Assembly (NCBI GenBank): GCA_964636345.1
Contig: CAZWRL010000001.1
Coordinates: forward strand, 235 to 64,234
Origin: an uncultured Gammaproteobacteria bacterium
Lineage (GTDB): Bacteria; Patescibacteriota; Patescibacteriia; Magasanikbacterales; JBBTXJ01
Length of the DNA: 64,000 bases
Direction of reading: 5' to 3'
Both the position numbers and the translations under genes were made by a program. Of this stretch, positions 1-28,943 are shown piece after piece; within the stretch, counting starts at the first letter, position 1, and each line of letters opens with the position of its first letter. The notes beneath the pieces are model-generated. The model saw only the letters and a program-made list of their open reading frames with translations. It searched no databases and was not told the origin of the DNA.

Positions 1-25
1 GTAAAAAGTAATAAAAATAAAAAAT

Positions 26-48
26 GCGGCCTTCTCTCCGAAGGCCGC
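26..48. terminator. GC-rich hairpin (gcggcctt...aaggccgc) downstream of the minus-strand lipoprotein gene 72..728
   Basis: Inverted repeat gcggccttctctccgaaggccgc seen directly, flanked by A/T runs. Confidence 0.35.
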
Positions 49-71
49 TTAGAATTCACATTTTCTGCGTT

Positions 72-728
72 CTATTGTTGTGTGAGAACGAAGTCACATT
101 GAACCCGGAAAAAGACGATGGGATCAACGGTGCCATCACCAAATTCGCCTTCGCAGGTGCCGGAGATTGTCTGGTGATCAAGAGACAAAATGCCGGTGAA
201 GGTGATCCAGTGTTTGCTTTCACCATAAGGAACATCACTGACATAACGGAAGCCAAGTGGCGGTGGATCTATGCGCCCATCGCGCCTCAGATCACCCCAG
301 AGCGGTCCGTCGCCACCTACATTTCCCCAGAGATTGCACCCGTCCTGGTTAAGTGCGGTTTCTGGTGTCAGCCAAAAATTTCGAGCAGCCATCGTGTTGT
401 TCGCAGGATCGAATTGGTAACCAAAGGTTTGCAGATTGCTGATTTCAATCGACCATATCCCCTGAAACCATTGTGGACAGGTGCAGATGCCAGGTTCCTT
501 CGCCCCGCACTCCAGCCCATCCAGACAGGTGTTGCTGGACGATCCGCCGCACGGCTCACCATCGGCGCCAGGCGGACGCACACCCTCTCCCTCGTTCGGA
601 GATCCTTCTCCCTCGTTGCCCTCGTTGCCGCCGTTGTCACTCCCGCCACTCGGCGTCTTGCTCTCCTCGCCACAGGCGGGGAGGAGAAGGCCCAACAGGG
701 CCATGCTCATCAGGTACTTTGACACCAT
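72..728 (-). CDS. Secreted lipoprotein, paralog 1 of 3; Asp-rich Ca-binding (thrombospondin-type-3-like DxDxDG) repeats and a Cys-rich C-terminal domain
   Basis: N-terminus MSMALLGLLLPACGEE is a signal peptide plus lipobox Cys. The N-terminal half is paralogous to ORFs 1557..2315 and 3590..4348, and the C-terminal half diverges. Confidence 0.6.
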   Translation of the reverse strand: MVSKYLMSMALLGLLLPACGEESKTPSGGSDNGGNEGNEGEGSPNEGEGVRPPGADGEPCGGSSSNTCLDGLECGAKEPGICTCPQWFQGIWSIEISNLQTFGYQFDPANNTMAARNFWLTPETALNQDGCNLWGNVGGDGPLWGDLRRDGRIDPPPLGFRYVSDVPYGESKHWITFTGILSLDHQTISGTCEGEFGDGTVDPIVFFRVQCDFVLTQQ

Positions 729-930
729 CTCTCTCCTCCTCGGTTTGTTGTTTCAATTAAACCACCTTTCGCGGGATTTGTCAATAGTATGTCATTGCGA
801 GGAGTCCCGATCACAATCGGGACGACGAAGCAATCTCATTAGATTGCTTCCCCCGGATCAGGTCCGGGGTCGCAATGACACTTTCGTAGAGGTCCATTGG
901 GTTTATGTTGCCTTCGCCGACCATGACCGC

Positions 931-1512
931 ATGCCAATAACCAACATCACCGTTGACTGGGATTTTGACAACCGCATCACCGGCGGTAACCCGGGTAAGT
1001 TCAAGAACAAAAAGACCCGGTGTTCCGCCAACAAAGCGGCAGCTTCTTGCGCGAATAATGTGAATGTCACCTGCTCAAAAGATACGGAATGTTCTGACAA
1101 TGGTCTTGGAGCATGTTCTGGCACTGCGGCTTCCTTTGGCAACTCGTCCGATGCCTGTGAAAAGGGATTCCATGAGTTCTTCGGTTCCTACAACTTCCAA
1201 CCCGATGATACCACCCACTGTAACTACAAGGTTGGAACAAACAACCCTGCCAATGTCACCACAGCCCAGCTCACCAGTTACGGCCTCTCCTTTGGAGACC
1301 GCTACTGCGCCTTTAAACCGAGAGTCATCATCATAGATAACTGGGGGTGGTGTAATGGGACGTGTGATGTGAATGGAGGGTGTTGGGAGAGTGACCGTGA
1401 TAGTGATTTAGCAAATTCTGGTCATTGTACCAATCCCAATCACGATGATTATAAGGCAGGAAAAGTTGGCACGCCATTTGATGGCTGGATAATTGTTGCG
1501 GAGCAGAAATAA
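931..1512 (+). CDS. Cys-rich hypothetical protein with a C-terminal DNWGWCNGT...GWIIVAEQK module; no recognisable signal peptide, so it may be 5'-truncated
   Basis: The 481..1512 ORF is antisense to the 72..728 gene before position 728, and the first ATG after that is at 931. The C-terminal ~90 aa are paralogous to the fragment 3169..3435. Confidence 0.4.
   Translation: MPITNITVDWDFDNRITGGNPGKFKNKKTRCSANKAAASCANNVNVTCSKDTECSDNGLGACSGTAASFGNSSDACEKGFHEFFGSYNFQPDDTTHCNYKVGTNNPANVTTAQLTSYGLSFGDRYCAFKPRVIIIDNWGWCNGTCDVNGGCWESDRDSDLANSGHCTNPNHDDYKAGKVGTPFDGWIIVAEQK
1247..1320. repeat. 74-bp direct repeat, copy 1, inside gene 931..1512; copy 2 is at 3169..3243
   Basis: Near-identical string ccaatgtcaccacagcccagctcaccagttacggcctctcctttggagaccgctactgcgcctt read at both sites. 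Confidence 0.85.
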
Positions 1513-1546
1513 AAAAAGCGGCTTCCCCCCAAAAGCCGCTTACGAA
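1513..1546. terminator. Bidirectional intrinsic terminator hairpin between convergent genes (aaaaaagcggcttcccccc aaaagccgctt)
   Basis: Stem gcggctt/aagccgc with an A-run upstream and T-rich sequence on the other strand. A homologous hairpin lies at 3556..3589. Confidence 0.5.
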
Positions 1547-1556
1547 CATGTACTAC

Positions 1557-2315
1557 CTACTCGCGCCGCGTGAGCACGAACGTACAGGTGATGGGAAAGA
1601 GATTCCGGCCGGTATGCCAGCCAGGATATTCCCCGGTGCAAGTTCCCTGGACGGATTTTCCATCCGCCGATACCTGTCCAGTTGACTGGAGTGAATGCTC
1701 CTGATTGTCGCCAGCATCCCAAGTCCGTTTGTAGGAAAAACTCAGGGAGGGTAGTTTGAGCTCCCCACTTCCGTCATCCCTTGCCCACAGAAACTGCAGA
1801 TCCGGACCTCGGATCACGCACCCATCCTGTTCAAAAGTAACCTCCTGCTCGCTCCAAAACTGCCGATCCAGCCCGGGAGCCATGAAATCGTACTCCTCCC
1901 CGTCGGTGCGCCGCACCTCCGTGAACTCCGCCCACCACGTCCCCTCCATCCACTGGGGACAGGTGCAGATGTCGGGTTTCTCTGCCTCGGCTCCGCACTG
2001 GAAACCATCCTGGCAGGTTCCGCCATCTCCGCAAAGCTCCGAGTCCGCTCCGGGAGGAATCCCATCCACCTTTCCGTCGCAGTCATTGTCCTTGCCGTCG
2101 GCAACCTCCTTGGCGCCCGGATTGATGCGCGGGTCGCTGTCGTCGCAGTCGTTCTGTACTTCTCCGCAGTAAGGCCAGAAATCTCCATCCTTGTCGTTGA
2201 TGTCGGCGTCGACGGAGGTGCACGCGCCTTCTTCTCCACCACCCGACGTCTTGCTCTCCTCGCCACAGGCGGGGAGCCCCAGGCCCACCAGGGCCATGAA
2301 AAGAACGTGCCGCAT
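1557..2315 (-). CDS. Secreted lipoprotein, paralog 2 of 3 (Ca-binding DxDxDG repeats, variable C-terminal domain)
   Basis: MALVGLGLPACGEE signal plus lipobox. About 125 N-terminal aa are almost identical to ORF 3590..4348; DNDCDGKVDG-type repeats. Confidence 0.65.
   Translation of the reverse strand: MRHVLFMALVGLGLPACGEESKTSGGGEEGACTSVDADINDKDGDFWPYCGEVQNDCDDSDPRINPGAKEVADGKDNDCDGKVDGIPPGADSELCGDGGTCQDGFQCGAEAEKPDICTCPQWMEGTWWAEFTEVRRTDGEEYDFMAPGLDRQFWSEQEVTFEQDGCVIRGPDLQFLWARDDGSGELKLPSLSFSYKRTWDAGDNQEHSLQSTGQVSADGKSVQGTCTGEYPGWHTGRNLFPITCTFVLTRRE
1930..2296. repeat. ~367-bp near-identical direct repeat (copy 1) covering the 5' coding half of lipoprotein paralog 2
   Basis: Copies 1930..2296 and 3961..4327 compared by eye; only a few mismatches. 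Confidence 0.8.
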
Positions 2316-2422
2316 CTTCTCTCCCTCCTCGGTTTTTTTGCCCCCCTTCTAGGGGGTGTTGTTTTTATTTCTCTACCTATTGTACTACAGGTAGCCATCC
2401 ATTAAACCATATACAGAGAGAT

Positions 2423-2451
2423 TTGTCAAGTGGTATTGATTGTGCTATCTT
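2423..2451 (+). promoter_or_regulatory. Candidate sigma70 promoter (TTGTCA, 17 bp, TATCTT) placing a transcription start ~2 nt before ATG 2460, i.e. a leaderless HEPN transcript
   Basis: Hexamers read directly; no SD before ATG 2460. Confidence 0.3.
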
Positions 2452-2459
2452 TACTGTGT

Positions 2460-2870
2460 ATGAAGGAAATAACGAGAAAGTGGGTTCTTTTTGCCCGGGC
2501 AGATCTTGATGCGGCAGAGCTCCAGTTTCGTTATGGCGGCAAACGCGGCAGTGCCTATCAGATTGCAGTGTTCCACTGTCATCAGGCAATCGAGAAGCTC
2601 TTGAAAGCACACTTCATTGAACAGGATAAAGAAGTGAGAAAGAATCATGATTTGATTCAGCTTCGGACAGAAATCAATTTAGAGTTTCCCAAAGAGCTTT
2701 CAGTAATAATTGAAAATCTGCATCCCCACTATCTGCTCCCTCGTTATCCGGATTTAGCATTTAGACCCGCATTTTCATTCTCGTACACCCGTTCAAACAC
2801 CCGAAAAATTTTATCTGACACCAGTAAATTATTCCTATGGCTCGAACGACTTTTAAAGAAAAAAAAATAA
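2460..2870 (+). CDS. HEPN-domain protein (toxin partner of a HEPN/MNT module); alternative GTG start at 2430
   Basis: HEPN-like features (CHQAIEKLLKA helix, LLPRYPD motif). Overlaps the downstream nucleotidyltransferase gene by 34 nt. Confidence 0.55.
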   Translation: MKEITRKWVLFARADLDAAELQFRYGGKRGSAYQIAVFHCHQAIEKLLKAHFIEQDKEVRKNHDLIQLRTEINLEFPKELSVIIENLHPHYLLPRYPDLAFRPAFSFSYTRSNTRKILSDTSKLFLWLERLLKKKK

Positions 2871-3169
2871 TCAGTGCCTATCAGAAAAGTTTAGAACCGT
2901 ATTTGCGGTTAGACGGCGTTTTCGTGTTTGGTAGTACCGCGCGTGGGGAACGGACGTCATCAAGCGATCTTGATGTTATTGTATTATCACGGGATTTTAA
3001 AAAAATGTCTTTCATGCGCCGCCTTCGATTATTGAACCGTCTTCGTTCGGGCCCAGCGCTTCATGTTCCTATGGATATTATCGGGTTTACGCCGGATGAG
3101 TTTAAATCATTGAAAACAAGCGAATCTCCAAATCTGCGACGGGTGTACCATGAGGCAAAAAAAATGTAG
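2837..3169 (+). CDS. Minimal nucleotidyltransferase (MNT, pol-beta superfamily); partner of the HEPN protein
   Basis: GS...DLDV motif: FGSTARGERTSSSDLDVIV. Confidence 0.7.
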   Translation: MARTTFKEKKIISAYQKSLEPYLRLDGVFVFGSTARGERTSSSDLDVIVLSRDFKKMSFMRRLRLLNRLRSGPALHVPMDIIGFTPDEFKSLKTSESPNLRRVYHEAKKM

Positions 3170-3435
3170 CCAATGTCACCACAGCCCAGCTCACCAGTTA
3201 CGGCCTCTCCTTTGGAGACCGCTACTGCGCCTTCAAACCGCGCGTGATTGTGGTGGATAACTGGGGATGGTGTAATGGGACGGATGCACAGGGTGCGATA
3301 AAAGGATATTGGGGCAATCCGGATGCGCAACAGGCGGAACATAATATTTGTACAAATAAAGATGCCGATGATTATATGGATGGTTTGATTGGAACTAAAT
3401 TTAGTGGATGGATTGTAGTGGCAGAGCAGAAATAG
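3169..3435 (+). pseudogene. Promoterless, start-less duplicate of the 3' module of gene 931..1512, with a divergent middle segment and conserved GWIVVAEQK end
   Basis: Homology begins at the last base of the MNT stop codon. The reading frame is open from 3154 but has no ATG; the only possible initiator is GTG 3244. A repeat shared with 1247..1320 precedes a variable block. Confidence 0.5.
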
Positions 3436-3555
3436 TTCTCATCCCGGACTCGCCGCGAGATCCGGGATCCAGTCAATTGATGGGTTCCGGGGGGGGGCCT
3501 GACGGGCCGAGCGAGCGCAGGCCCAGGAGTCCGGAATGACACATGCTGAAAAATA

Positions 3556-3589
3556 AAAAAGAGCGGCTCCCCCCAAAGCCGCTCGCGCA
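3556..3589. terminator. Bidirectional terminator hairpin (aaaaaagagcggctcccccc aaagccgctc), homologous to 1513..1546
   Basis: Inverted repeat and A/T runs seen directly. Confidence 0.45.
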
Positions 3590-4348
3590 CTAGTCACGCC
3601 GTGTGAGCGTGAAACTACACTCCACATTGAAGAAGGTATCTGGTCGCGTGGACACGTCCGGATACGTTCCGGAACAGGTGCCAGCAACAACCTGATTATC
3701 AGGAGCCATGTTACCCGTGAACGTAATCCACGCTTCGCCTTCAAGGCTACCCACTTCTCTCTTCCAGAGAAATCCGTTTGGTGGCGGATCCATCTTTCCT
3801 TCGCCAGCGTTTCCTGTTGAGAACGGCCAGTTTTCCGCTGGCCTGATCAAGGTACACCCATCCTGTTGGATGTCAACCTCTCGGTTCTCCCAGAACTGGC
3901 GAGAAATGTCGTGGGCGTTGAAGTCATACTCGTAGTCCACAGCATGGGCTGTAAACTCCACCCACCACGTCCCCTCCATCCACTGGGGACAGGTGCAGAT
4001 GTCGGGATTTTCCGTCTCCGCTCCGCACTGGAAACCATCCTGGCAGGTTCTGCCATCTCCGCAAAGCTCCGAGTCCGCTCCGGGAGGAATCCCATCCACC
4101 TTTCCGTCGCAGTCATTGTCCTTGCCGTCGGCAACCTCCTTGGCGCCCGGATTGATGCGCGGGTCGCTGTCGTCGCAGTCGTTCTGTACTTCTCCGCAGT
4201 AAGGCCAGAAATCTCCATCCTTGTCGTTGATGTCGGCGTCGACGGAGGTGCACGCGCCTTCTTCTCCACCACCCGACGTCTTGCTCTCCTCGCCACAGGC
4301 GGGGAGCCCCAGGCCCACCAGGGCCATGCTCATCAGGTACTTTGACAC
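3590..4348 (-). CDS. Secreted lipoprotein, paralog 3 of 3 (Ca-binding repeats, variable C-terminal domain)
   Basis: MSMALVGLGLPACGEE. N-terminal half ~identical to paralog 2; C-terminal half distinct. Confidence 0.65.
   Translation of the reverse strand: MSKYLMSMALVGLGLPACGEESKTSGGGEEGACTSVDADINDKDGDFWPYCGEVQNDCDDSDPRINPGAKEVADGKDNDCDGKVDGIPPGADSELCGDGRTCQDGFQCGAETENPDICTCPQWMEGTWWVEFTAHAVDYEYDFNAHDISRQFWENREVDIQQDGCTLIRPAENWPFSTGNAGEGKMDPPPNGFLWKREVGSLEGEAWITFTGNMAPDNQVVAGTCSGTYPDVSTRPDTFFNVECSFTLTRRD
3961..4327. repeat. ~367-bp near-identical direct repeat (copy 2) covering the 5' coding half of lipoprotein paralog 3
   Basis: Matches 1930..2296. Confidence 0.8.
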
Positions 4349-4528
4349 CGTCTCTCTCCTCCCCGGTTTTGTTGGATTCTATCGCCCTGCTTCGCTAAAG
4401 CTACGCAGGACCCCAGAATGACGTTGTTTTTTGTTACCACCGTAGCCCCAGTAAATCACAGACGGGGGAGTTAGTCAAGAGCCAATAAGTCGACGGTGAT
4501 TTACTTTTAAGAATTTGTGGATAATTTA

Positions 4529-9150: not shown

Positions 9151-9202
9151 GCTTAGTAGAGATAATTTGTTTAATTTTAGCCAAAATATTGCCGTCAGGG
9201 CT

Positions 9203-9236
9203 TGACAAAATCCTCTGGATATGGTATACTACTCTG
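9203..9236 (+). promoter_or_regulatory. Near-consensus sigma70 promoter with extended -10 (TTGACA, 17 bp, TGgTATACT)
   Basis: ttgacaaaatcctctggatatggtatact read directly. SD gagga lies ~7 nt before ATG 9291. Confidence 0.55.
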
Positions 9237-9290
9237 TTCTTTGAGAGTGGAAATAAACAACGTTGGGGCAATGCCCCGAGGAGAATGCAG

Positions 9291-9752
9291 ATGACCAGGC
9301 GTAATTGGGAGTTCGTGGCGGTGCTCGTGGTGATGACGATCGTGGTGATGCAGACGGCCGGGTGCGGGACCCAGTGGTCGGGCAGGGTCCACATCCCGGT
9401 CGGCGACGGCGGGGAGATCGGGATCGGGAGCGGTAGCGGCGTCGGCGTGGACGAGGTCTCCGAGACCATGCCCACGCCCGAGGTTCGCGGTCGCACGACC
9501 GCGCTCTACAACCCCACCTCCAACTGGAAGCGCGTGCTCATCGAGGACTCGATCGTGTCCCTCGAGCCGCACCAGAACCTGTACGTGGTTCGGAGCACCC
9601 CCTACGGGTACCAGCTCCGGATGTGCACGTACGACGGCCAGGGCGTCTACTTCCTCGGCGAGGGTTCGCTCAACGTGAGCGAGCCGCAGGGCGTGATGCA
9701 GAATCACACCTTGTCCAACACGGGCCGACCCGCCGCGGAGTGCTCCTTCTAG
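9291..9752 (+). CDS. Small GC-rich secreted lipoprotein (hypothetical)
   Basis: MQMTRRNWEFVAVLVVMTIVVMQTAGCG is a signal peptide plus lipobox. Codon usage is visibly GC-rich relative to neighbours. The 9189 start in the ORF track would sit inside the promoter. Confidence 0.5.
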   Translation: MTRRNWEFVAVLVVMTIVVMQTAGCGTQWSGRVHIPVGDGGEIGIGSGSGVGVDEVSETMPTPEVRGRTTALYNPTSNWKRVLIEDSIVSLEPHQNLYVVRSTPYGYQLRMCTYDGQGVYFLGEGSLNVSEPQGVMQNHTLSNTGRPAAECSF

Positions 9753-9771
9753 GAGCGACACGTCACGCGGC

Positions 9772-9822
9772 GCGAGGGGCCATCGGATTCTACATCCGGT
9801 GGCCCCTCTTCTTTTTTATCCC
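9772..9822 (+). terminator. Hairpin plus T-run after the lipoprotein gene
   Basis: ggggccatcgga...tccggtggcccctc followed by ttcttttttta. Confidence 0.4.
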
Positions 9823-9886: not shown

Positions 9887-12670
9887 ATGACCGCACAGTT
9901 TCGTTATACAAAAGGGTTGCTTTTGGTTTTACTGCTATTTTTTAGTTTTTCAATAGTTGCTCCTGTTTACGCGGAAGCGCCGGCGGCAGGCGCTCCGGCA
10001 GCGAGTTCCAAAGATGAAGATGATGGTATCATTGCAGGCGCAGTGAAAGGTATTTTTGATTCTTTACTTGGGTTCATTGCCACCCTTTTCCTCATGGTTG
10101 CCAGTTTGCTCGCGGGTATTCTTGGCATGTTTATCTCCCTCCTTTTGAGCGTTGCCTCGTATAATAATTTTATTAACGCGGGCGGGGTTATTATCGGCTG
10201 GACGTTGACGCGCGACATTGTGAACATGTTTTTTGTCGCGGTATTTTTGGTTATCGCGCTGGGAACGATTATCGGCAAAAAGGAGTATCACATCAAAAAC
10301 GCGCTCCCCAAATTCGCGCTTGCCGCTATTCTGGTCAATTTTAGCCGGCTCATTCTTGGACTTATTATTGACGCGTCGCATGTCATCATGATGACGTTTG
10401 TCAATGCCATTCAACAGGTGGGGGGCGGTAATTTTTTGGCAGCGTTTAATATCCAAGCAAATTTTGAGCTGGCCAAAGACGCAGGGCTTTCCGGGTTTGA
10501 TCAACTACTCACGGCCATTATGAGTGTGCTTTTGGTTTTTATTGCCACGGTTATTGTGGGAATGTTCGCGCTCATGCTCGTTATGCGAATGGTTGGACTC
10601 TGGATATTAATTGCCGTGTCGCCCCTTGCGTTTTTTTTGCGGAGCTTGGATTCAAAAAGTTTTCAAAAATACTACGGTGATTGGGAGGGAAAGTTTAAGG
10701 TAAATGTTTTGATGGGACCGGTGATTGCATTTTTTTTGTGGCTTGCGCTTGCCATGTCGCAAGGCGGTAAATTATATTCCAGCGAGGTAAAGGGTGCATC
10801 GGACGCGGAAGCGCAAAAGAATTTGGAAGGAAAACCCGGACTGGTTGGTTCTACCATTTCTACCATTGAGGGTTTGAGTTCGTTTATTATTTCAGCGGCG
10901 TTGTTTTTGTTTGCGTATCAACAAGCGCAACAATTTGCCAAAGAGAGCGGTATACCGGGAATGGATAAGCTGGTGGGTAAGGCGGGTGATTTTATGAAGA
11001 AGGGCGCCAAGTATGTGAGCGGATATAAGGCGGCGCGCGCGGTTGGGTCATACACGGTAGGCGCCGGAGCGCGCTGGGCGTTGCGTGCGGGAGCCGGATT
11101 GGCGCGCGGTGCAGTGGGGCTTGGTAAAGTGGTTGCTGGCGGATATGCTGCTGGTGGTATGCGTGGCGCGGCGGGTGCACTTGGCGGTGCGGCGGCTGGC
11201 GCAGCACGCGCACTGCCTGGCGCAGCCATGGGAGCGGTTCGTGCGGCGGCCGTAGTTGGCGGATTGAAGGGCGCGGGTATCGCGCTTGCCGCTGGTGCCG
11301 CTGGTCTTGGCGCGACTGCAGCTGCGGGAATCAAGGGTAAACTTGGTGAAGTTGCCTCAAAGGATATAGAGAAGTTTGGCAAGGTTGACTCCAATTTGTC
11401 TAATGATCAGTTGTCTGATGTGATGCGAAGAGGCGGCGCGCGCGGTCAGGCGGCAGGATTGTCACTTGCAAAGCGCGGGTATCAATTTACAGAGACAGAG
11501 GCCAAGACAATGCAGGCATTGCTTGCCGGCAATGGGCCATCTGAAAAACAATTTAAGGATAGCTTAAAGAAAAGTGCGCCGCATCTTGCGTATGATCTTT
11601 CCGATCCGAAAAAACGCAAAGAAATGTTGCGTGATCCGGAAGTGCAAACGAATAATCTGCCACGCGAAGCGTTTGAAGGGCCACATGGCGAAGCGCTCAT
11701 GAGTGATATGCTTGAAGATTTGGGTTCAAAGGGTCTTGGTAAACAAATTAATAGTTTGCGTAACCCTGACGCGCGCAAGGCGGCGCTCAATGTGATGCGT
11801 ACCTCCACCATCCCCACCGCCTTTCGTGAGCGTGGTACGCATGTGGCGCGGCTTGGCGCAACAACCGACACTACCGCAGGGACTGTTCACGGTGAACTCC
11901 ACATGAAACGCGCCGCGCTTGCGGCGCTTCCCGCGGGTAATACGATGACGAATCGGCAGAAAAAGATTGATCTTGAGCGTGATATACGCAAGCTTGAGGG
12001 TGAAAAAAGCGCGCTTGAAACACGGGTGAGTGCCGGTGTTGATCTTGCCAAGTTGCACGCTCAAGAGACAGGTCGGCCAGATCAGACGGTTGCTTCTTTG
12101 TCATCTGCCGAGCAAGCATCGCTTCTACCCGATCTTGTTCAAGAAGTAGGAGTTGGGGGCTTGAAACCTGAAGCGCTCCAGAATCCTGAAGTGTTGGCGG
12201 CAATTGAGAAAACTGCTGGTGATCGGTTTGGCGATGCCATGAAAAAGTTGGATCCGGAAAAGATGCGGGTGGTTGTAACGGCGGTTGCCAATATTAATAG
12301 CGTCTCTGCCCCACCAGAGCAGGTGCGTGTTAAGGTGCGGGTATCCGGTGATTTTACCGGCGTTGAGGCAAATCCAGAGCGCGCTGTCATTATACAACAA
12401 GCAGTTTCAGTTATGAATTCTCGCGAATTGGCGCAGGTTAAATTAGATACACTGGGCGGCACGAGAGATGATTTTTATAGTGCGTTGACGCAGAATCCTG
12501 GGGCGGTTAGGGGATTGAATCGGGCGGAGGGGATGAGTCAAGCAAAACTTGATGAAATTGAAGCCGAGGTCAAAAAACGTGCCGTCACCGATCCCGCAAA
12601 ATTTGGTGCGCTTGCGAAGGAAATAGGCAGTTGGAATAAAGGAAAGGGTGGCGGAGGGCGAGGACCCTAA
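9887..12670 (+). CDS. VirB6/TrbL-like polytopic membrane protein with a long Gly/Ala-rich and coiled-coil C-terminal extension (T4SS-like channel component)
   Basis: Signal peptide, at least 6 TM helices in the first ~330 aa, a low-complexity GA-rich region, and a C-terminal charged/coiled-coil segment. Position ahead of VirB3/VirB4-like genes. Confidence 0.5.
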   Translation: MTAQFRYTKGLLLVLLLFFSFSIVAPVYAEAPAAGAPAASSKDEDDGIIAGAVKGIFDSLLGFIATLFLMVASLLAGILGMFISLLLSVASYNNFINAGGVIIGWTLTRDIVNMFFVAVFLVIALGTIIGKKEYHIKNALPKFALAAILVNFSRLILGLIIDASHVIMMTFVNAIQQVGGGNFLAAFNIQANFELAKDAGLSGFDQLLTAIMSVLLVFIATVIVGMFALMLVMRMVGLWILIAVSPLAFFLRSLDSKSFQKYYGDWEGKFKVNVLMGPVIAFFLWLALAMSQGGKLYSSEVKGASDAEAQKNLEGKPGLVGSTISTIEGLSSFIISAALFLFAYQQAQQFAKESGIPGMDKLVGKAGDFMKKGAKYVSGYKAARAVGSYTVGAGARWALRAGAGLARGAVGLGKVVAGGYAAGGMRGAAGALGGAAAGAARALPGAAMGAVRAAAVVGGLKGAGIALAAGAAGLGATAAAGIKGKLGEVASKDIEKFGKVDSNLSNDQLSDVMRRGGARGQAAGLSLAKRGYQFTETEAKTMQALLAGNGPSEKQFKDSLKKSAPHLAYDLSDPKKRKEMLRDPEVQTNNLPREAFEGPHGEALMSDMLEDLGSKGLGKQINSLRNPDARKAALNVMRTSTIPTAFRERGTHVARLGATTDTTAGTVHGELHMKRAALAALPAGNTMTNRQKKIDLERDIRKLEGEKSALETRVSAGVDLAKLHAQETGRPDQTVASLSSAEQASLLPDLVQEVGVGGLKPEALQNPEVLAAIEKTAGDRFGDAMKKLDPEKMRVVVTAVANINSVSAPPEQVRVKVRVSGDFTGVEANPERAVIIQQAVSVMNSRELAQVKLDTLGGTRDDFYSALTQNPGAVRGLNRAEGMSQAKLDEIEAEVKKRAVTDPAKFGALAKEIGSWNKGKGGGGRGP

Positions 12671-12679
12671 ATTTACGGT

Positions 12680-13984
12680 ATGATTCATTTTACTCCACAA
12701 AAGGTTGAAGAGCTTACCGCAAAAGCGTTGCCAAAGGCGCGTGAGCAGGCGGCTGTTTTGGTTCCCGTTGTTACGGCAACGGTTGGTGGTTTGATTGATA
12801 ATTCCACGCGGGCAAAGACACTCGGGAAGATGTTTGGGTGGGCTGCGCTTGGGGGCGCGAATTATCTGCGTGACATGCCGCAAGAAATTATTGAAACATT
12901 CGGCACGGCGGAAGATGTGGCGTATACCTTGTGTGACCGCGTGCTTGAGGCGCATGGTGATTTATTTAAACCGTTTGTTGAACATATTGATGCCATTCGC
13001 CGGCCATGGCAGGCGAAAGTGAAACAGGATGTGATGAAGGAGCGTGCTGCGGATGGGCCGGGAGCAGTGATTGCGCCGACGGTGGTATTGCCAGTGATTG
13101 CGCCGCTTGAAGAGGCGCCGGTGAATGGCGGTTTGAAACATCAAGATATTGCTGATCGGGTGAATGCGCGTTTGGCAATGGTGGAACAGTTGGCTGGCGT
13201 GACATTTACTAATCCCGACATGGCGGAACGCTTTCGCCATGCGTTGCGCTGCGCGCTTGGTGGCGTGAAAAAGTTGGATGAGGTGGCGCGACAACTTGCG
13301 CTGGTGCCGGATCGCGGCGGACTCGGCATGGGACAGGAGGAAGTGCAGGAGATTGTTGGTTTGCTTGAACGGCTTCATGCCAAAGAAGCGGAACAAGCAG
13401 AGCGGGCGCAGATGAAAAAACCAGAAACGCCGAAGAGTATGTTGCCGATGGTGGTTGGCGAGATTGCTTCATCATCTTTACCCTTCGACTCCGCTTCGCT
13501 TCGCTCAGGGACAAATATTACTCGCAATGACACGTCTCAAAAACTTGATGAATTGATTCAACAAAGCGCGGCGAATGATTCAGTTGATCTTTCGGCACTT
13601 GCTACCGGCGGCGCGGATCTTGCGGCGTCGCGCAAAATGCATGATGTGATTGCCCGGCCGCTTACCATGGGGCCGCTTGAAGAATTGCGCACGCTTGATG
13701 TGACGGATTTCAGACGTTTGGCAACCAAAGCCGGCGCGGCAGTGGATAAAATTAAACAAAAATTGGAATTATTGCGTGACGATGGCGTTGACCGGTACGC
13801 GGCGGGCATTAAGGCGTGGCGCGGAAGCCCGCTCTACTTTCTGTATGTGGATATGGTGCAGGAAGGATTGGTGGAAGGGCGCGCGCTGGAAGATATCGCC
13901 GCGTCAGATACCAATGATCCGGAGCGTTTAAGTGGCGAAGAACTGAAAAGTATAGTAGAATTAAATAAGTCATTACGATTTTAA
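12680..13984 (+). CDS. Hypothetical soluble protein (434 aa) inside the T4SS-like cluster
   Basis: ORF packed tightly between the VirB6-like and PrgI-like genes; no recognisable motifs. Confidence 0.45.
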   Translation: MIHFTPQKVEELTAKALPKAREQAAVLVPVVTATVGGLIDNSTRAKTLGKMFGWAALGGANYLRDMPQEIIETFGTAEDVAYTLCDRVLEAHGDLFKPFVEHIDAIRRPWQAKVKQDVMKERAADGPGAVIAPTVVLPVIAPLEEAPVNGGLKHQDIADRVNARLAMVEQLAGVTFTNPDMAERFRHALRCALGGVKKLDEVARQLALVPDRGGLGMGQEEVQEIVGLLERLHAKEAEQAERAQMKKPETPKSMLPMVVGEIASSSLPFDSASLRSGTNITRNDTSQKLDELIQQSAANDSVDLSALATGGADLAASRKMHDVIARPLTMGPLEELRTLDVTDFRRLATKAGAAVDKIKQKLELLRDDGVDRYAAGIKAWRGSPLYFLYVDMVQEGLVEGRALEDIAASDTNDPERLSGEELKSIVELNKSLRF

Positions 13985-13986
13985 GT

Positions 13987-14427
13987 GTGCCACAACAGTT
14001 CGCGGTGCCACAATTTATTGACGCGGAAGATAAAATTATGGGGCCGGTAACGGTGCGCCAGTTTTTAATTCTGATTGTAGCCGCGCTCGGGGCGTTTATC
14101 ATCTGGAAGCTCGCGACGTTTTGGCTCGCGATTGTGCTGGCGGTGTTATGGTTTATTCTCGCGGTTGTGGTCGCATTTGTAAAAATTAACGGGCAGAATT
14201 TTCATGTTTTTTTGTTAAGTTTTGTGCGTACGCTGGTGAAGCCGAATCTCCGCGTGTGGAAGAAAGATTACACAAAAGAGGAATTAACCGCTTTGATGCA
14301 GATGGCGCCCAAGGTAGTGGTTAAAGAAGCGGCGGTTCAGAAAGAACGGGTGGCGCGCGGACGTTTGAGTGAATTATCGCTCACGGTTAATTCCGGCGGC
14401 GCGTTTGATCCAAAGGATTACGAATAG
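13987..14427 (+). CDS. PrgI/VirB3-like small two-TM membrane protein
   Basis: 146 aa with two adjacent TM helices, immediately upstream of VirB4 (conserved VirB3-VirB4 synteny); GTG start. Confidence 0.45.
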   Translation: MPQQFAVPQFIDAEDKIMGPVTVRQFLILIVAALGAFIIWKLATFWLAIVLAVLWFILAVVVAFVKINGQNFHVFLLSFVRTLVKPNLRVWKKDYTKEELTALMQMAPKVVVKEAAVQKERVARGRLSELSLTVNSGGAFDPKDYE

Positions 14428-14428
14428 T

Positions 14429-15118
14429 ATGGCAAAACCCCCCAAAACTTCCATTCCTTCTACCCAGCGATACCTGGACATTGCGGCGATTCGCGATGGG
14501 GTGATTGTTATGCGTGATGGGACGCTTCGCGCGGTGTTGATGGTTTCAAGTATCAACTTTGCGTTGAAATCCGAGCAAGAACAGGAGGCGCTGGTGGGAA
14601 GTTATGTGAGTTTTTTGAATACGCTGGAATATCCGATTCAAATTGTGGTGCAATCGCGCAAGATGAATATTGACGCGTATCTACAGTTGCTCAAGGAGCA
14701 AGAGCAAAAGCAAACCAATGAATTATTGCGCGCGCAAATTCAGGATTATCGCGCGTTTGTGGTTGATTTGGTGGAACTGGGGGAAATTATGCAGAAACGA
14801 TTTTTTGTGGTGCTTGCGTATGATCCGGCGGCGAACATTAAAAAGGGGTTCCTGACGCGGCTGAAAGATGCGATGGCGCCCGCGAAAGTTATTAAAATGA
14901 AGGAAAAACAATTTAATGAACGGCGGCAGGATTTGCAGATGCGGGTTGACGGGGTGAGCAGCAGTTTGCAGGGGATGAGTTTAAAAGTGGTGCAATTGGA
15001 TACGCAAGGGCTCATTGAATTATTTTATAACATTTATAATCCGGTCACCGCGCCACAAGAAGAGCTCACTGATATCGGCAAGTTGCAGGTTGAGGAAGAA
15101 CCGGCGTTTGCTCCGTAA
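14429..15118 (+). CDS. VirB4/TrbE/CagE-family ATPase, N-terminal fragment, ended by an in-frame TAA
   Basis: N-terminal VirB4 signature (IRDGVIVMRDGTLRAVLMVSSINFALKSEQEQEALVGSYVSFLNTLEYPIQIVVQ). Same frame as 15122..17197, separated only by TAA plus one codon. Confidence 0.6.
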   Translation: MAKPPKTSIPSTQRYLDIAAIRDGVIVMRDGTLRAVLMVSSINFALKSEQEQEALVGSYVSFLNTLEYPIQIVVQSRKMNIDAYLQLLKEQEQKQTNELLRAQIQDYRAFVVDLVELGEIMQKRFFVVLAYDPAANIKKGFLTRLKDAMAPAKVIKMKEKQFNERRQDLQMRVDGVSSSLQGMSLKVVQLDTQGLIELFYNIYNPVTAPQEELTDIGKLQVEEEPAFAP

Positions 15119-15121
15119 TCT

Positions 15122-17197
15122 ATGGCATTTAAACCCGTACAATCTGGCGCGCTTGGAGCTACCGAACAGGTAAAGAATGTTGGGGCGGCATTAAAGACCA
15201 AAGCGGAGCATGAGGAGGCGACGCAGCAGGCGGCTGTTGACAAATCGCTTTCCGTGTTGCAGGAAGAGCGTGTGTACCGTGAGGGCGCGGTTTCGGTGCG
15301 CGATATTATCGCGCCGGCGGCGTTTAAGGTTGATCCCGGCATGGTGCATCTTGGGGATACGGTGCTCCGCACGATGTATGTGGTGACCTATCCGCGCTTC
15401 ATTAGTATTGGCTGGTTCACGCCGATTATCAACATGAATGTCACGGTTGACATTTCCATGTATTTTTATCCGATGAAATCCGAGATTGTGCTGAAGCAAC
15501 TGAAGAAAAAGGTGGGAACGCTAGAGGCAGAAATAAGTGCGGCGCGTGAGAAGGGGATGCCGCGTGATCCCGCGGCCGAGACCGCCATTGGTGACGTTGA
15601 ACGTTTGCGTGATTCATTAACGCAGGGCACCGAACATTTTTTCCAATTTGCGTTGTATGTCACCGTGTACGGCAAGGATCTGGAAACGTTAAATAAGGTC
15701 TCTGAACAGGTTGAATCCGTGTTTGCGAGTTCTTTGATTTACACGCGTCGTGTATTATATCAGGCGGAGCAAGGATTTAATTCAACCCTGCCGCTTGCCA
15801 ATGATGAATTGCAGGTCGCGTTTAACATGAATTCATCGCCGATTGCGTCGTCGTTTCCGTTCATGTCAAGCGATCTGACGTCTGACAGCGGCATTTTGTA
15901 TGGGATCAATCGGCACAATAACAGTTTGATTATTTTTGACCGTTTCAGTTTGCCGAACGCGAACGGGATTGTGTTTGCCACGTCCGGCGCGGGTAAAAGT
16001 TACGCGGTGAAATTGGAAATTTTGCGGACACTCATGATGGGCGTTGACGTTATTGTGATTGACCCTGAAATGGAGTACAAAAATTTGTCTGACGCGGTGG
16101 GCGGTTCGTATGTTAATTTGTCGCTTGCGTCAGAGAGCAAACTTAATCCGTTTGATTTGCCGCGTCCCACCACCGGCGATGCTACCACTGAAGATATTAT
16201 TCGGAGCGCGGTGATTACCACCAAAGGAATCTTGCGCGTGATGCTGGGGCAATTTTCCGTTCAGGAGGATTCATTGCTTGACCGCGCGCTATTGGAAACC
16301 TACGCCAAAAAAGATATTACGGCTGATTCTGATTTAACTAAATTGGGCCCCACCGACATGCCCATTTTGACTGACTTGCAGGATATTTTGGAGGGCATGA
16401 CCGATTCAAAAGATCTGGTTGAAAAATTGAAGAAGTATACGGAAGGCACGTTTTCCGGTTTGTTAAATTCCTACACTAATATCACGATGAATAATTTACT
16501 CGTGGTATTCAGTGTGCGTGATTTGGAAGATGAATTGCGGCCGGTGGGGATTTTCACGATTGTAAATTATATTTGGAATGTGGTGCGCTCCGAGCGAAAG
16601 AAGCGCGTGCTGGTGGTTGATGAGGCGTGGTGGCTCATGCAACATGAGGATTCCGCGCGGTTTATTTTCACGCTCGCGAAACGTTGTCGTAAATATTTTT
16701 TGGGCATTACCACCATCACGCAGGATGTGGCCGACTTTTTGGGGTCGCAGTACGGACGCGCGATTGTGACGAACTCGCAGATGCAATTGTTGTTGAAGCA
16801 ATCAACGGCCTCCGTAGATAAATTGGTTGAGGTTTTTATGTTAACGCAGGGCGAGAAGTTTTTACTGTTGGAGTCAGGAGTGGGCGAGGGTATTTTCTTT
16901 GCCGGACCGCGTCACGCCGCGATTAAAATTATTGCTTCCTATAATGAGGATAAATTGGTAACGACGAATCCGGAGCAGTTGCTCGCGATTGATAAATCCA
17001 AAAAAGCGTTTAAGGAGATGATACAAACAAAAGAGACGACGCCAGCGGCGAGTGCTCCCGCACCAGAACCGGCGCCTAAGGAAGAGCCGAAAGAAGAGCC
17101 GAAAGAAATGGCAGTGGAAACACCGGCTGAAGTAGTGGCCGTGGCACCGGAAGCCGTGGTTGCGCCTGCACCGGCGCCGGAAGCGCCTAAAACATAA
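15122..17197 (+). CDS. VirB4/TrbE/CagE-family ATPase, main body with Walker A and B
   Basis: Walker A FATSGAGKSY, Walker B RVLVVDEAWWLM, and a Pro/Glu-rich C-terminal tail. Confidence 0.75.
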   Translation: MAFKPVQSGALGATEQVKNVGAALKTKAEHEEATQQAAVDKSLSVLQEERVYREGAVSVRDIIAPAAFKVDPGMVHLGDTVLRTMYVVTYPRFISIGWFTPIINMNVTVDISMYFYPMKSEIVLKQLKKKVGTLEAEISAAREKGMPRDPAAETAIGDVERLRDSLTQGTEHFFQFALYVTVYGKDLETLNKVSEQVESVFASSLIYTRRVLYQAEQGFNSTLPLANDELQVAFNMNSSPIASSFPFMSSDLTSDSGILYGINRHNNSLIIFDRFSLPNANGIVFATSGAGKSYAVKLEILRTLMMGVDVIVIDPEMEYKNLSDAVGGSYVNLSLASESKLNPFDLPRPTTGDATTEDIIRSAVITTKGILRVMLGQFSVQEDSLLDRALLETYAKKDITADSDLTKLGPTDMPILTDLQDILEGMTDSKDLVEKLKKYTEGTFSGLLNSYTNITMNNLLVVFSVRDLEDELRPVGIFTIVNYIWNVVRSERKKRVLVVDEAWWLMQHEDSARFIFTLAKRCRKYFLGITTITQDVADFLGSQYGRAIVTNSQMQLLLKQSTASVDKLVEVFMLTQGEKFLLLESGVGEGIFFAGPRHAAIKIIASYNEDKLVTTNPEQLLAIDKSKKAFKEMIQTKETTPAASAPAPEPAPKEEPKEEPKEMAVETPAEVVAVAPEAVVAPAPAPEAPKT

Positions 17198-17202
17198 CGC
17201 CT

Positions 17203-17769
17203 ATGCTTTTTACTGAACGACGCCCACTCATGATTGGACTTATCGTGTTATCCGCGGTTGTGGTTGTGGTGGTTGTGATTTTTATTGTTCGTTTTGCGCG
17301 GAGTGGCGACTCGGGCGGAGAAGCAGTCAAGCCGACACCTGCTAAAATAGCTGGTACATCATCGGATGGCGCGGTGGTGCCACCAAAAGATTTTGATAAA
17401 CAAACGGTTGAAAGTTTGGCTCGTCTTTTTGTTGAACGGATTGGCAGTTATTCAAATCAGAGTAATTTTCAAAATTTGAATGATGTGGCAAGTTTGCTGA
17501 CGCCACGAGCGCGTACGTGGGCCGATGGTTTGAAGAAAACGCAAGATACCAGCGCGGGGTATCGCGGGATAACGACAAAAGCGTTGACCGCGGAGACCAC
17601 TGACTGGAAACCACGTGAGAGCGCGCGCGTGCGTATTGCAACGCAACGACAGGAGGAGCGTGATGGTGCCTTGCCACAGTTGCAGTATCAGGATGCTGAA
17701 GTGCGCTTGGTTTTTCAGGGTGACTCGTGGCTGGTTGATGAAATGGTATGGAAGGATGTTCAGCCATGA
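17203..17769 (+). CDS. Bitopic membrane protein (one N-terminal TM plus a ~150-aa extracytoplasmic domain); possible VirB8-like T4SS component
   Basis: Single TM (IGLIVLSAVVVVVVVIFIV). The VirB8 call rests on position only. Confidence 0.35.
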   Translation: MLFTERRPLMIGLIVLSAVVVVVVVIFIVRFARSGDSGGEAVKPTPAKIAGTSSDGAVVPPKDFDKQTVESLARLFVERIGSYSNQSNFQNLNDVASLLTPRARTWADGLKKTQDTSAGYRGITTKALTAETTDWKPRESARVRIATQRQEERDGALPQLQYQDAEVRLVFQGDSWLVDEMVWKDVQP

Positions 17770-18415
17770 GTGCGTGACACAATGGTTTTTTGATCGCTTG
17801 TTTCCGCTTTCTTGTTTTGGTTGTGAAAAGGAAGGGTGCTGGGTGTGTGGCGCGTGCGAAGACGCGCTTGTGTTTTTACCGCCGGTATGGCAGGGAGCTC
17901 CTATGCCACTCCGCGGAAGCACCGCTGTTTTTACCTATGACCAGCCGGTGGTGCGTTCCATGGTGATGGCGCTCAAATATCAGTATGCGGAATTGGTAGT
18001 TCCGGTGATGGGCGGTTTGATTGCTCGGTGGCTCTCGGACGGCGGCAGAGAAATGTTTCCCGCGAATGGCGTTATTGTTCCGGTGCCGCTCCACCCGCGA
18101 CGGTATGCCTTACGCGGATTTAATCAGGCGGAATTGATTGCCCAGGAGCTTGGCCGCCTTCTTGGTCAACCGGTCGTTTGTCTCCTGAAGCGCACACGCG
18201 CTACGCGCCATCAAACACTGCAAACGCGTCTTTTGAGATGGCAAAATGTTGATGGCGCTTTTGCGGTGGCTGATGATGCGGTGATTGATGGAAGGCCGGT
18301 TATTATTGTTGATGATGTGACCACAACCGGCGCAACGCTTGCCGCATGCGCACGGCCGCTTATGGCGGCAGGCGTTCAGAAAATATACAGCTTTGCCTTT
18401 GCGCGTGAGTTATGA
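17738..18415 (+). CDS. comFC: ComF/ComFC-family phosphoribosyltransferase-domain protein (DNA-uptake associated)
   Basis: N-terminal Cys4 zinc finger (CFGCEKEGCWVCGAC) and PRTase motif IIVDDVTTTGATL. Start chosen at the first ATG after the upstream gene. Confidence 0.7.
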   Translation: MKWYGRMFSHECVTQWFFDRLFPLSCFGCEKEGCWVCGACEDALVFLPPVWQGAPMPLRGSTAVFTYDQPVVRSMVMALKYQYAELVVPVMGGLIARWLSDGGREMFPANGVIVPVPLHPRRYALRGFNQAELIAQELGRLLGQPVVCLLKRTRATRHQTLQTRLLRWQNVDGAFAVADDAVIDGRPVIIVDDVTTTGATLAACARPLMAAGVQKIYSFAFAREL

Positions 18416-25620: not shown

Positions 25621-25711
25621 TGGCGGTGGGGGTGAGATTCGAACTCACGGTACCCTTTGGGGGTACGACAGTTTTCAAGACTGTTGCCATCAACCACTCG
25701 GCCACCCCACC
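25621..25711 (-). tRNA. tRNA-Ser (anticodon UGA), long variable arm, encoded CCA
   Basis: Reverse complement GGTGGGGTGGCCGAGTGG...anticodon loop CUUGAAA...GTTCGAATC...CCCCACC-G-CCA. Confidence 0.8.
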
Positions 25712-25824
25712 ATCATGCGAAGGTAGTATGGCACACCAGAGCCAAAAAATCAAGGCGCGAGGTAGTGTTGACAGAGCGCGCCTCGTGTGATAATCTCACT
25801 CTATCTTTGACAACTAAGGAGTCA

Positions 25825-27906
25825 ATGATGGATACGATACGTCGTCCACCGCCTATCGTGCGGAACACGTGGACGTGGGGCGACGTGGACGCGCCCCGAG
25901 ACGTCTCGTGCGAGAACATCCGCATGATGCTGCTCATCGCGCGGCTCGTGTGGGGTATCGACGGTGGTTCCGTGATCGCGGAACTTCCCGCTCCCTTCGA
26001 TCGGCACGCGCTTCTTGTGGACGCGCGGAATTTCGTGCCGCTCTGGGTGTACGTGCACGTGGCGCACGGGATTCACGACCTGGTAGGTCGCGTTGAGGGG
26101 ACGCAGTATCCTTTTGCGCCGGAGCGGTTTGCCGCGTTTGGCGTGGAAGGAATCCGGTTCCAGACATGGGGCGATCGGCGCAAGGCGCTTTCACAGCTCT
26201 TTGCTTCGTTCGCGAATCCTTTGCTCGGGTACCGTCGGGTGCCGGTTGAGAACTTGGATTTCAACTGGACAAAATCCTATCGCGTGGTGAGCGAGGGTTC
26301 CACATGGTGGATGCCGATGTTCTTCGCGCGAGAAGACATCCCGCTGGTGGATGACCTGCCATCGGATTGGTGGATTGTTGAGGGGCTCTGGCCGGGCATC
26401 GCCACCATCTTCGGTCTGCCGCCGGCGCGTGTAGTTCGACGCACACGGAGCTACGATCCGGTCCAGTTTTTCACGCAGGGTCGCAAGGTGCGTGACCTGC
26501 AGTGGCGGGTTACGGAAAAGGAAGACCGGGCAACCTTCATCATTAATGGTGAACGAGTTGGCGAGCGGGTGCATCTCCTGCCACGTGCGATTCGTGACGG
26601 CACATGGTGGTTCACGGGTGACGTGCTTTCGTCTGGCGAAGCGCCGGCATCGGTGGATATGCCAATGTTTTTGGCGTCGAAGCGGTGCATGATCGGCGAT
26701 TACCCTGTCTGTGAATCTCGTGACATGCTGTATGCACCCGAGTTGAGCCGTCGGGTACTGCAGGCAGAAATTCACGCGCGTCGGCCCATCGGGTACCGCA
26801 TGCGCGGCGACGCGGTTCAGGTGGCGGTTGAGTCCGGTCAGTGGGAAAAGATCGGTACCATAAACCTGCGGAATGTTTCCGTAGCGAGCCTCCCTACAGC
26901 CATCCGTTTCACGACAGACATACAGCTGCCTCATGGCGTACCGATTGTCACGAAGGGTGAGGTGTGGGGTCAGGATCTTGGGTTCAGCGCCCGGGTCGTG
27001 TGGGACAAACCACCGCCGTTTTGGCGGCGTGACCTCCGCACCGTGTGGCAGCGGCTGTTCCCCAATCAGCGTGTATTCGAGCGTCTGGCAGATCGGGCGC
27101 GTATCGCAGGGTTGCAACGGCAGCTCTCTACCACAGAATCCGAGCGGCGGCGTGTGGAGGATGCATTCCAGTACAAGCTGGCCGAGCTGGATACGCGCGA
27201 CCATGACCTCGCCGAGGCAACCGTTCGTTCGTTCCGGCGTTTTGCTTCGCGATTTCCTTCCGCGGAAATTGCACAGCAGGTGCTTGACGGGACGTATGTT
27301 AGTGAACGAGTGGAGGACGCGGTATTCCTGGTGATTGATGCGGCAGGTTCCACAAACGCCGTGCAGGATCGTATCGCACGCGCAGGGGTGGAGCATGATC
27401 TTGCAGAACAGGCAAAGATTTTTGCCGCCGCCTACAACGGCTTCATGACGTGGGCCAAAGAGGTAGTGCAACGGCACGGTGGTTGGGTGTTTGCATTTGA
27501 AGGCGATGCGATCAAGGCGGTTTTTGGACTGAACCAAAAATCTCCGCGCGCGCTCGCGGCGAATGATGCATTCAAGACCGCGCTTGATCTATTGGCGGGT
27601 ATTGGAAAGTGGCCGTCCGGCGAAGGGTTGGCGTTTGGTGCGCGCATCGGCATTGCGATGGGTACCACCCATTTGAGCTTGGTTGGTACGGGTGAAGATG
27701 CCTTTATGACACCCAATTCACGCGCGCTTAATGCCGCGGCGCATCTTGAGAAATCAAAATGTCGTCAACGGGGTGGCGAGATTGCCATTGATGGTAAAAC
27801 CGCCGCGTTCCTTGCGGAGCAGTTGAACGAATCACGACTTTTGGTTTGGCGCGCCGTTGAAGAGCTAGATGGTGCGCAGATGGAAATTGTGCGTGTTTCG
27901 GAGTAG
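25825..27906 (+). CDS. Class III nucleotidyl (adenylyl/guanylyl-type) cyclase with a ~500-aa uncharacterised N-terminal domain
   Basis: C-terminal cyclase-homology domain (FLVIDAAGST, FEGDAIKAVFG, RIGIAMGTTHLSLVG). SD aaggag before the ATG; GC-rich gene. Confidence 0.6.
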   Translation: MMDTIRRPPPIVRNTWTWGDVDAPRDVSCENIRMMLLIARLVWGIDGGSVIAELPAPFDRHALLVDARNFVPLWVYVHVAHGIHDLVGRVEGTQYPFAPERFAAFGVEGIRFQTWGDRRKALSQLFASFANPLLGYRRVPVENLDFNWTKSYRVVSEGSTWWMPMFFAREDIPLVDDLPSDWWIVEGLWPGIATIFGLPPARVVRRTRSYDPVQFFTQGRKVRDLQWRVTEKEDRATFIINGERVGERVHLLPRAIRDGTWWFTGDVLSSGEAPASVDMPMFLASKRCMIGDYPVCESRDMLYAPELSRRVLQAEIHARRPIGYRMRGDAVQVAVESGQWEKIGTINLRNVSVASLPTAIRFTTDIQLPHGVPIVTKGEVWGQDLGFSARVVWDKPPPFWRRDLRTVWQRLFPNQRVFERLADRARIAGLQRQLSTTESERRRVEDAFQYKLAELDTRDHDLAEATVRSFRRFASRFPSAEIAQQVLDGTYVSERVEDAVFLVIDAAGSTNAVQDRIARAGVEHDLAEQAKIFAAAYNGFMTWAKEVVQRHGGWVFAFEGDAIKAVFGLNQKSPRALAANDAFKTALDLLAGIGKWPSGEGLAFGARIGIAMGTTHLSLVGTGEDAFMTPNSRALNAAAHLEKSKCRQRGGEIAIDGKTAAFLAEQLNESRLLVWRAVEELDGAQMEIVRVSE

Positions 27907-28860: not shown

Positions 28861-28943
28861 AGTGATCTTTAGTATACACGATATGTATTTGACAGGCGAA
28901 TGATGGTATGGTTAGCTTGAGATACACATTGGAGGAGGGAGCG

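Follow-up and report, generated by a model that had tools for sequence, protein, structure and literature searches.

A type IV secretion operon with a terminal comF gene in a Magasanikbacterales contig: probable identity and possible cargo

What does a secretion machine carry when its operon ends in a competence gene and no relaxase lies in the surrounding 64 kb? The question is raised by positions 9887-18415 of a 64,000-nucleotide stretch (the window) of contig CAZWRL010000001.1, assigned to the Magasanikbacterales, where seven close-packed open reading frames (ORFs) span the + strand. The locus is very probably an ordinary chromosomal type IV secretion system (T4SS) of the ultra-small Patescibacteria, derived from the Gram-positive-type conjugation machinery of monoderm bacteria (mating-pair formation type FATA, MPF-FATA) and laid out as in the class ABY1. 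It is real and it is not new, since systems of this kind were described between 2023 and 2025. The initial annotation, made from the sequence alone, had seen a 'minimal' and unusual apparatus. What it described is rather the ordinary, vertically inherited Patescibacteria T4SS, whose parts and comF neighborhood are published for ABY1 (PMC12102498), so that every element of the earlier finding was already in the literature.

The reference point for this identification is a survey of 3,035 Patescibacteria genomes (Quiñonero-Coronel et al. 2025, PMC12102498). It reports that the Patescibacteria VirB4 proteins form a monophyletic clade nested within MPF-FATA, with TrsD as their most abundant partner and PrgI/VirB3 and VirB6 widespread, while VirB8 homologs are almost confined to ABY1. 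Relaxases are nearly absent from these systems and type IV coupling protein (T4CP) genes are seldom found near virB4. A 2025 review treats them as an established newcomer to the T4SS superfamily (PMC12857230).

The operon, its products and their conservation

The intergenic gaps of the cluster measure 9, 2, 1, 3 and 5 nt and are followed by a 14-nt overlap between the VirB8-like gene and comF, a packing that points to one operon. Its genes are:

9887..12670, + strand: extended VirB6-like polytopic membrane protein, 927 residues, assigned by predicted fold and position
12680..13984, + strand: U434, soluble conserved protein, 434 residues, of a family without Pfam, NCBIfam or PDB match
13987..14427, + strand: PrgI/VirB3-like two-transmembrane protein, 146 residues (PF12666)
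14429..15118, + strand: TrsD/TraC-like protein, 229 residues, the detached VirB4 N-terminal domain (NF041427, VirB4_plasma, PF26593)
15122..17197, + strand: VirB4 ATPase body, 691 residues (NF045971, PF19044)
17203..17769, + strand: VirB8-like bitopic protein, 188 residues, assigned by topology and predicted fold
17756..18415, + strand: ComF/ComFC-type protein, 219 residues (TIGR00201, GntX, Pribosyltran, motifs)

The set holds a complete monoderm inner-membrane T4SS core, made of VirB3, a split VirB4 and the VirB6-like and VirB8-like proteins, together with U434 and ComF. The initial annotation placed all of its ORFs at these coordinates on the + strand. It stated six genes where seven are present, having missed 14429-15118 or merged it into VirB4.

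The ATPase body matches NF045971, the VirB4-like CD1110 family, with an E-value of 1.5e-102 and 344 bits against a cut-off of 325 (model positions 183-729), and this match above cut-off marks it as a VirB4 of monoderm (FATA) type. It also matches P-loop_TraG (PF19044) at E 1e-26. Its Walker A (GAGKS, residues 289-293) and Walker B (DE, residues 500-501) motifs are invariant among relatives, and the ORF ends in an Ala/Pro/Glu-rich tail. The ORF before it matches NF041427 (TrsD/TraD) at E 4.1e-7 and VirB4_plasma at E 4.1e-9 (model positions 128-242), covers positions 10-97 of the CD1110 model and carries PF26593 (TraC-like) in precomputed annotation. With 14429-15118 as the N-terminal domain and 15122-17197 as the ATPase, VirB4 is thus divided over two genes that together make one canonical VirB4.

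The PrgI/VirB3 and ComF assignments of the initial annotation were likewise confirmed by profile matches (PF12666 and TIGR00201/Pribosyltran, respectively), as was its VirB4 (the CD1110 family). The PF12666 match reaches E 3.7e-10 and 40.6 bits against a cut-off of 27. It starts at residue 7 of the 146-residue form, which favors the GTG start at 13987 over the ATG at 14038 where the JGI call begins; the protein shows a single long hydrophobic stretch at residues 16-71. ComF matches TIGR00201 at E 8.1e-28 and 97.6 bits, under that model's cut-off of 233.55, GntX at E 2.5e-24 and Pribosyltran at 26.9 bits, just over the cut-off of 26.3. A CxxC...CxxCxxC cysteine cluster and the phosphoribosyl pyrophosphate-binding motif VIIVDDVTTTG can be read in it, and the protein joins an N-terminal Cys4 zinc finger to a C-terminal phosphoribosyltransferase-type domain. 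An ATG at 17738 provides an alternative start.

The 927-residue protein is a different case. No Pfam or NCBIfam model matches it, and PDB searches with its family profile returned low-complexity noise. The TrbL model PF04610 is touched by two of 35 family members (E 4e-4 and 9e-3, both under cut-off), hhalign of the family profile with PrgH of plasmid pCF10 gave a non-significant E of 0.086, and a PF19590 tag on seven homologs in precomputed annotation was not reproduced by our own scans. The N-terminal part consists of a signal-like helix and about seven transmembrane helices at residues ~47-345, followed by a Gly/Ala-rich linker at ~380-480 and a hydrophilic C-terminal half. Distant homologs conserve only the N-terminal third, which defines the protein as an 'extended VirB6' with a variable C-terminal half. 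A model of the membrane domain (residues 1-375), built with 35 sequences, has a predicted local distance difference test score (pLDDT) of 77.8 and a predicted template-modeling score (pTM) of 0.69. It shows a polytopic helical fold like that of solved VirB6; Foldseek places TrwI chains on top (probability 0.99-1.0, weak E of ~1e-2, TM-score 0.28-0.45), and the gene stands beside those for VirB3 and VirB4. A VirB6-like identity is thus supported by predicted fold and gene position, not by sequence. Of the VirB6/TrbL channel protein proposed initially at 9887, the fold and the position agree and the sequence match to TrbL failed.

For the 188-residue protein, too, searches of Pfam, NCBIfam and PDB sequences gave nothing usable, and none of the pCF10 proteins PrgH, PrgL and PrgD gave a significant hhalign match to the family profiles. 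From residue 7 to 33 it forms a transmembrane helix, which a disordered linker joins to an NTF2-like domain (residues ~60-188). Modeled from a 14-sequence alignment (pLDDT 78.5 overall and ~90 across residues 60-188), the latter packs three helices against a four-stranded curved sheet. By its predicted fold this extracytoplasmic domain is closest to VirB8 structures, and the bitopic membrane protein listed initially at 17203..17769 is VirB8-like.

U434 has no transmembrane segment and no Pfam, NCBIfam or PDB sequence match, in keeping with its first description as a soluble 434-residue protein of no recognized family. A search of its profile against 1.84 billion representative proteins gave 2,282 representative clusters at E<=1e-3, and 1,881 at the stricter E<=1e-10. 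These proteins have 300-950 residues; their conserved module of about 120 residues is invariably placed at the extreme C terminus and ends in ...LN..LRF across the family (...LNKSLRF in the window protein). No Pfam domain occurs in 37 sampled members, and the named members are Patescibacteria hypothetical proteins. Judged from these matches, U434 is a soluble subunit so far recorded from no group other than Patescibacteria.

The layout of the operon is widely shared. One genome per GTDB species was scanned, giving 580 VirB4 relatives, and the best 80 loci (60-84% identity) were scored with hidden Markov models built from the window operon and four relatives. These 80 species representatives come from Magasanik-, Uhr- and Falkowbacteria, and their lineage is Patescibacteria wherever one is named. 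The closest named proteins belong to Candidatus Magasanikbacteria and Uhrbacteria, which we take to be members of GTDB class ABY1. The order VirB6–U434–PrgI–TrsD–VirB4–VirB8–ComF is essentially fixed among the best 80 of the 580 loci, with the following counts, which take in only loci with enough flanking sequence:

TrsD: 77 of 77 loci
PrgI: 75 of 77 loci
VirB8-like protein: 74 of 74 loci
U434, between the VirB6-like gene and PrgI: 66 of 68 loci
VirB6-like protein: 53 of 56 loci
ComF, directly after the VirB8-like gene: 65 of 66 loci

ComF lies on the operon strand in 70 of 71 cases, and distant U434 members (loci L088 and L089) occupy the same slot as the others. Among the best 80 loci, RecG is found downstream in nine and DprA upstream in five; RadA occurs in some relatives, including L089.

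Two relatives with a VirB6-like protein (P0026) carry further genes between the gene after VirB6 and PrgI, within the T4SS cluster (L006 14280-18917 and L007 8697-11692). These are two genes for bAvd, an accessory protein of diversity-generating retroelements, a 428-residue ORF and an S-adenosylmethionine synthetase; the secretion locus may thus have a diversity-generating element linked to it.

Direction of transport and nature of the cargo

When the ORFs treated as genes across the 64-kb window (about 58 ORFs of at least 110 residues) were scanned with Pfam, no relaxase, VirD4/T4CP, VirB11, integrase or transposase came up. No pilin-like small ORF that could encode a VirB2-like protein was found in the intergenic space of the window or adjoining the operon, and no peptidoglycan hydrolase was found in the window. 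Because neither a relaxase nor a coupling protein lies nearby, the machine would serve not conjugation but the movement of macromolecules between an epibiont and its host cell. VirB4, with PrgI as its anchor and TrsD as its partner, would supply the energy for assembly and for crossing the single membrane by way of a VirB6/VirB8 channel. The cargo of this near-universal and essential T4SS of bacteria from the candidate phyla radiation (CPR) is a biological question about these host-dependent organisms, and one that the locus does not settle.

Traffic in the class ABY1 may run inward, with nucleic acid passed to ComF, though we hold this view only tentatively. ComFC binds single-stranded DNA and has a transport and handling role in transformation (PMC9005727). 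As a competence protein of this type, ComF would receive incoming nucleic acid at the cytoplasmic face and hand it to DprA, RecG and RadA. We lean toward nucleic-acid import because the comF linkage is fixed and recombination genes are nearby: the hypothesis of DNA import has in its favor the near-invariant position of comF and the proximity of recG, radA and dprA in relatives. Co-localization of comF, recG and radA with the T4SS in ABY1 is also reported in the survey, whose authors propose import of DNA or other macromolecules (PMC12102498).

Several points weigh against this account of the locus. The placement of its VirB4 within the Patescibacteria clade would follow from best matches, and the VirB6 call comes from a predicted fold with the Foldseek values given above, without a sequence-level match. 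The cluster may also be incomplete here, since the window has neither a pilin nor a peptidoglycan hydrolase. The step from import to ComF meets further objections. Linkage to comF occurs within one class only, where shared descent might account for the gene order, and in one relative comF lies on the opposite strand. Moreover, in Southlakia epibionticum, a member of the Saccharibacteria and the one relative tested, transposon sequencing showed that epibiotic growth requires the T4SS but not comEC, comF or dprA (Wang et al. 2023, PMC10633639); these genetics argue that the essential role of the T4SS is independent of ComF.

Export is about as likely as nucleic-acid import, and its standing is equally tentative. 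On this view the machine would send protein effectors into the host cell, or extend into it a pilus for attachment or feeding, with comF no more than co-transcribed. Wang et al. favor protein export or another role for the T4SS, given that it lacks coupling protein and relaxase and is essential while the com genes are dispensable (PMC10633639). A 2026 preprint suggests that tubular structures at the parasite-host interface are T4SS pili, and the VirB6-like protein has a hydrophilic, variable C-terminal half that would suit a role at the surface, facing the host. Set against this are the lack of VirB2-like pilin genes or candidate effectors within or adjoining the operon, and the fact that 65 of 66 related species keep comF at the end of the operon, a retention beyond what casual neighborhood would predict, though not independent of shared descent.

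As to the missing hydrolase, some relatives have, immediately upstream of the VirB6-like gene, a gene for a Peptidase_M23 protein of 640-670 residues (L088 2696-4612, L089 3087-5093 and L038 263-2572). It is plausible that this protein is a VirB1-type cell-wall hydrolase; no equivalent stands next to the window operon.

A more specific form of nucleic-acid import is rather improbable: that the ABY1 T4SS recruited ComFC as a fixed operon member which, with U434, replaces coupling protein and relaxase, making the machine an importer of host nucleic acid. If true, the ComFC/U434 importer would feed recombination or nucleotide salvage with host nucleic acid. The comF linkage, the VirB8 fold and the U434 slot provide concrete handles on the import idea.

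Genomic setting and the question of mobility

The initial annotation had set the cluster apart from classical conjugation and recognized no relaxase, VirD4, VirB11 or pilin in it, and both statements held up in the Pfam and intergenic-ORF checks of the 64-kb window. A relaxase, or VirD4 together with an integrase, in the vicinity would have spoken for an ordinary integrative conjugative element, and neither turned up there. That the locus is such an element, functional or remnant, with an ordinary Gram-positive-type conjugation module, is very unlikely, even though VirB4 is most similar to families from conjugative elements (CD1110 and the Mbov_0397 ATPase of an integrative conjugative element). 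No flanking or att-like direct repeats surround the cluster, and the nearest tRNA genes lie 4.4 kb downstream, past housekeeping genes. GC content and GC skew run unbroken across the cluster into the neighboring DNA, and the same cluster in the same order in 80 different species indicates vertical inheritance. The absence of mobility genes, repeats and an adjacent tRNA in the window, the continuous composition and the housekeeping setting led us to reject this explanation.

The reading of VirB4 as a pseudogene left by a nonsense mutation, or as a product of stop-codon read-through, is scarcely credible. It would draw on the fact that TrsD and VirB4 lie in one frame, separated by a single TAA (15116-15118) with the ATG of VirB4 one codon later (15116-15124 in all). 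The split, however, is seen in 77 of 77 related loci, every VirB4 ORF starts with its own ATG (MAF...), and TrsD is a separate gene also in the pGO1 subclass and across Patescibacteria (PMC12102498). The frames coincide in only 20 of 79 related loci, about the level of chance, which refutes both versions: the in-frame TAA is a coincidence, neither read-through nor decay.

The neighbors of the operon encode GlpX, a NUDIX protein, YvcK, an EEP nuclease, an M14 peptidase, a GARS-like ligase, TypA and LemA, along with a long glycan-biosynthesis region. The M14 peptidase gene is convergent and abuts the 3' end of the operon after comF. Upstream, a lipoprotein-like ORF (9189-9752, +), whose signal peptide ends in ...QTAGC, holds the region's strongest candidate for a promoter (9202-9230) and is closed by a strong terminator-like hairpin with a 15-bp stem (9774-9808); the public gene call at this place sits on the other strand (9195-9761, -). 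This ORF was rejected as an operon member, given its own promoter-like site, the terminator-like hairpin and its conservation in no related locus.

Other features of the window lie farther away. A direct duplication with a spacing of about 2 kb occupies positions 1-4400 (1921-2220 and 3951-4250, 97% identity; 643-746 and 4266-4369, 90%; 1234-1362 and 3154-3282, 87%). It carries two 252-residue proteins with a MopE-type metal-binding motif, both on the - strand (1557-2315 and 3590-4348), and a HEPN (2430-2870) and nucleotidyltransferase (2837-3169) pair lies between the copies. A 749-residue ORF without Pfam match (25657-27906, +) has a C-terminal part that by eye resembles a nucleotide cyclase motif (FAFEGDAIKAVFG), and a protein that binds cyclic nucleotide monophosphates is encoded nearby at 28908-29447.

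Comparison with known secretion and uptake systems

The ComB system of Helicobacter pylori with ComEC/ComFC and the archaeal Ced system resemble the locus as T4SS-derived DNA importers without a relaxase, and in H. pylori ComFC is required for transport and for the handling of single-stranded DNA (PMC9005727). ComB, in contrast, is a diderm VirB2-10 system that reaches the periplasm only, and neither outer-membrane core components nor the ComB VirB2/7/9/10 set were found in the window. The CedB model hits the P-loop of the window VirB4 alone, with 40 bits against a cut-off of 700, and CedD scores 20 bits.

The Prg/Pcf system of pCF10 and the Trs systems of pGO1 and pSK41 share the CD1110-type VirB4 and the core logic of PrgH (VirB6), PrgI (VirB3), PrgJ (VirB4) and PrgL (VirB8), and pGO1 has TrsD as a separate N-domain protein. 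These plasmids have no counterpart of U434 or ComF. In turn, pCF10 has a VirD4 (PcfC), a relaxase, an adhesin and the PrgK hydrolase, none of which was found in the window.

Closer still is the T4SS of S. epibionticum ML1 (SEML1_0006-0019, PMC10633639), likewise of monoderm type, on the chromosome of a CPR epibiont and lacking a recognizable coupling protein or relaxase in its cluster. It differs in that its cluster includes an array of VirB2-like pilins and hydrolases, which are essential, and in its comF, which lies outside the T4SS cluster. We know of no ABY1 member in culture.

The ABY1 systems of the survey match the locus most fully. Both are chromosomal, have a separate TrsD beside VirB4 as well as PrgI/VirB3, VirB6 and VirB8-like parts, lack a relaxase and have comF alongside, with recG and radA in relatives. 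There is no essential difference between them (PMC12102498). Many other Patescibacteria have VirB2-like pilin and VirB1-like hydrolase genes near virB4, unlike the window, and the portions of Quiñonero-Coronel et al. 2025 consulted do not list the U434 family among the components. To this published picture the locus adds comF as a near-invariant terminal gene in about 80 ABY1-type species, support from predicted folds for VirB8 and VirB6, and the size and fixed slot of the U434 family.

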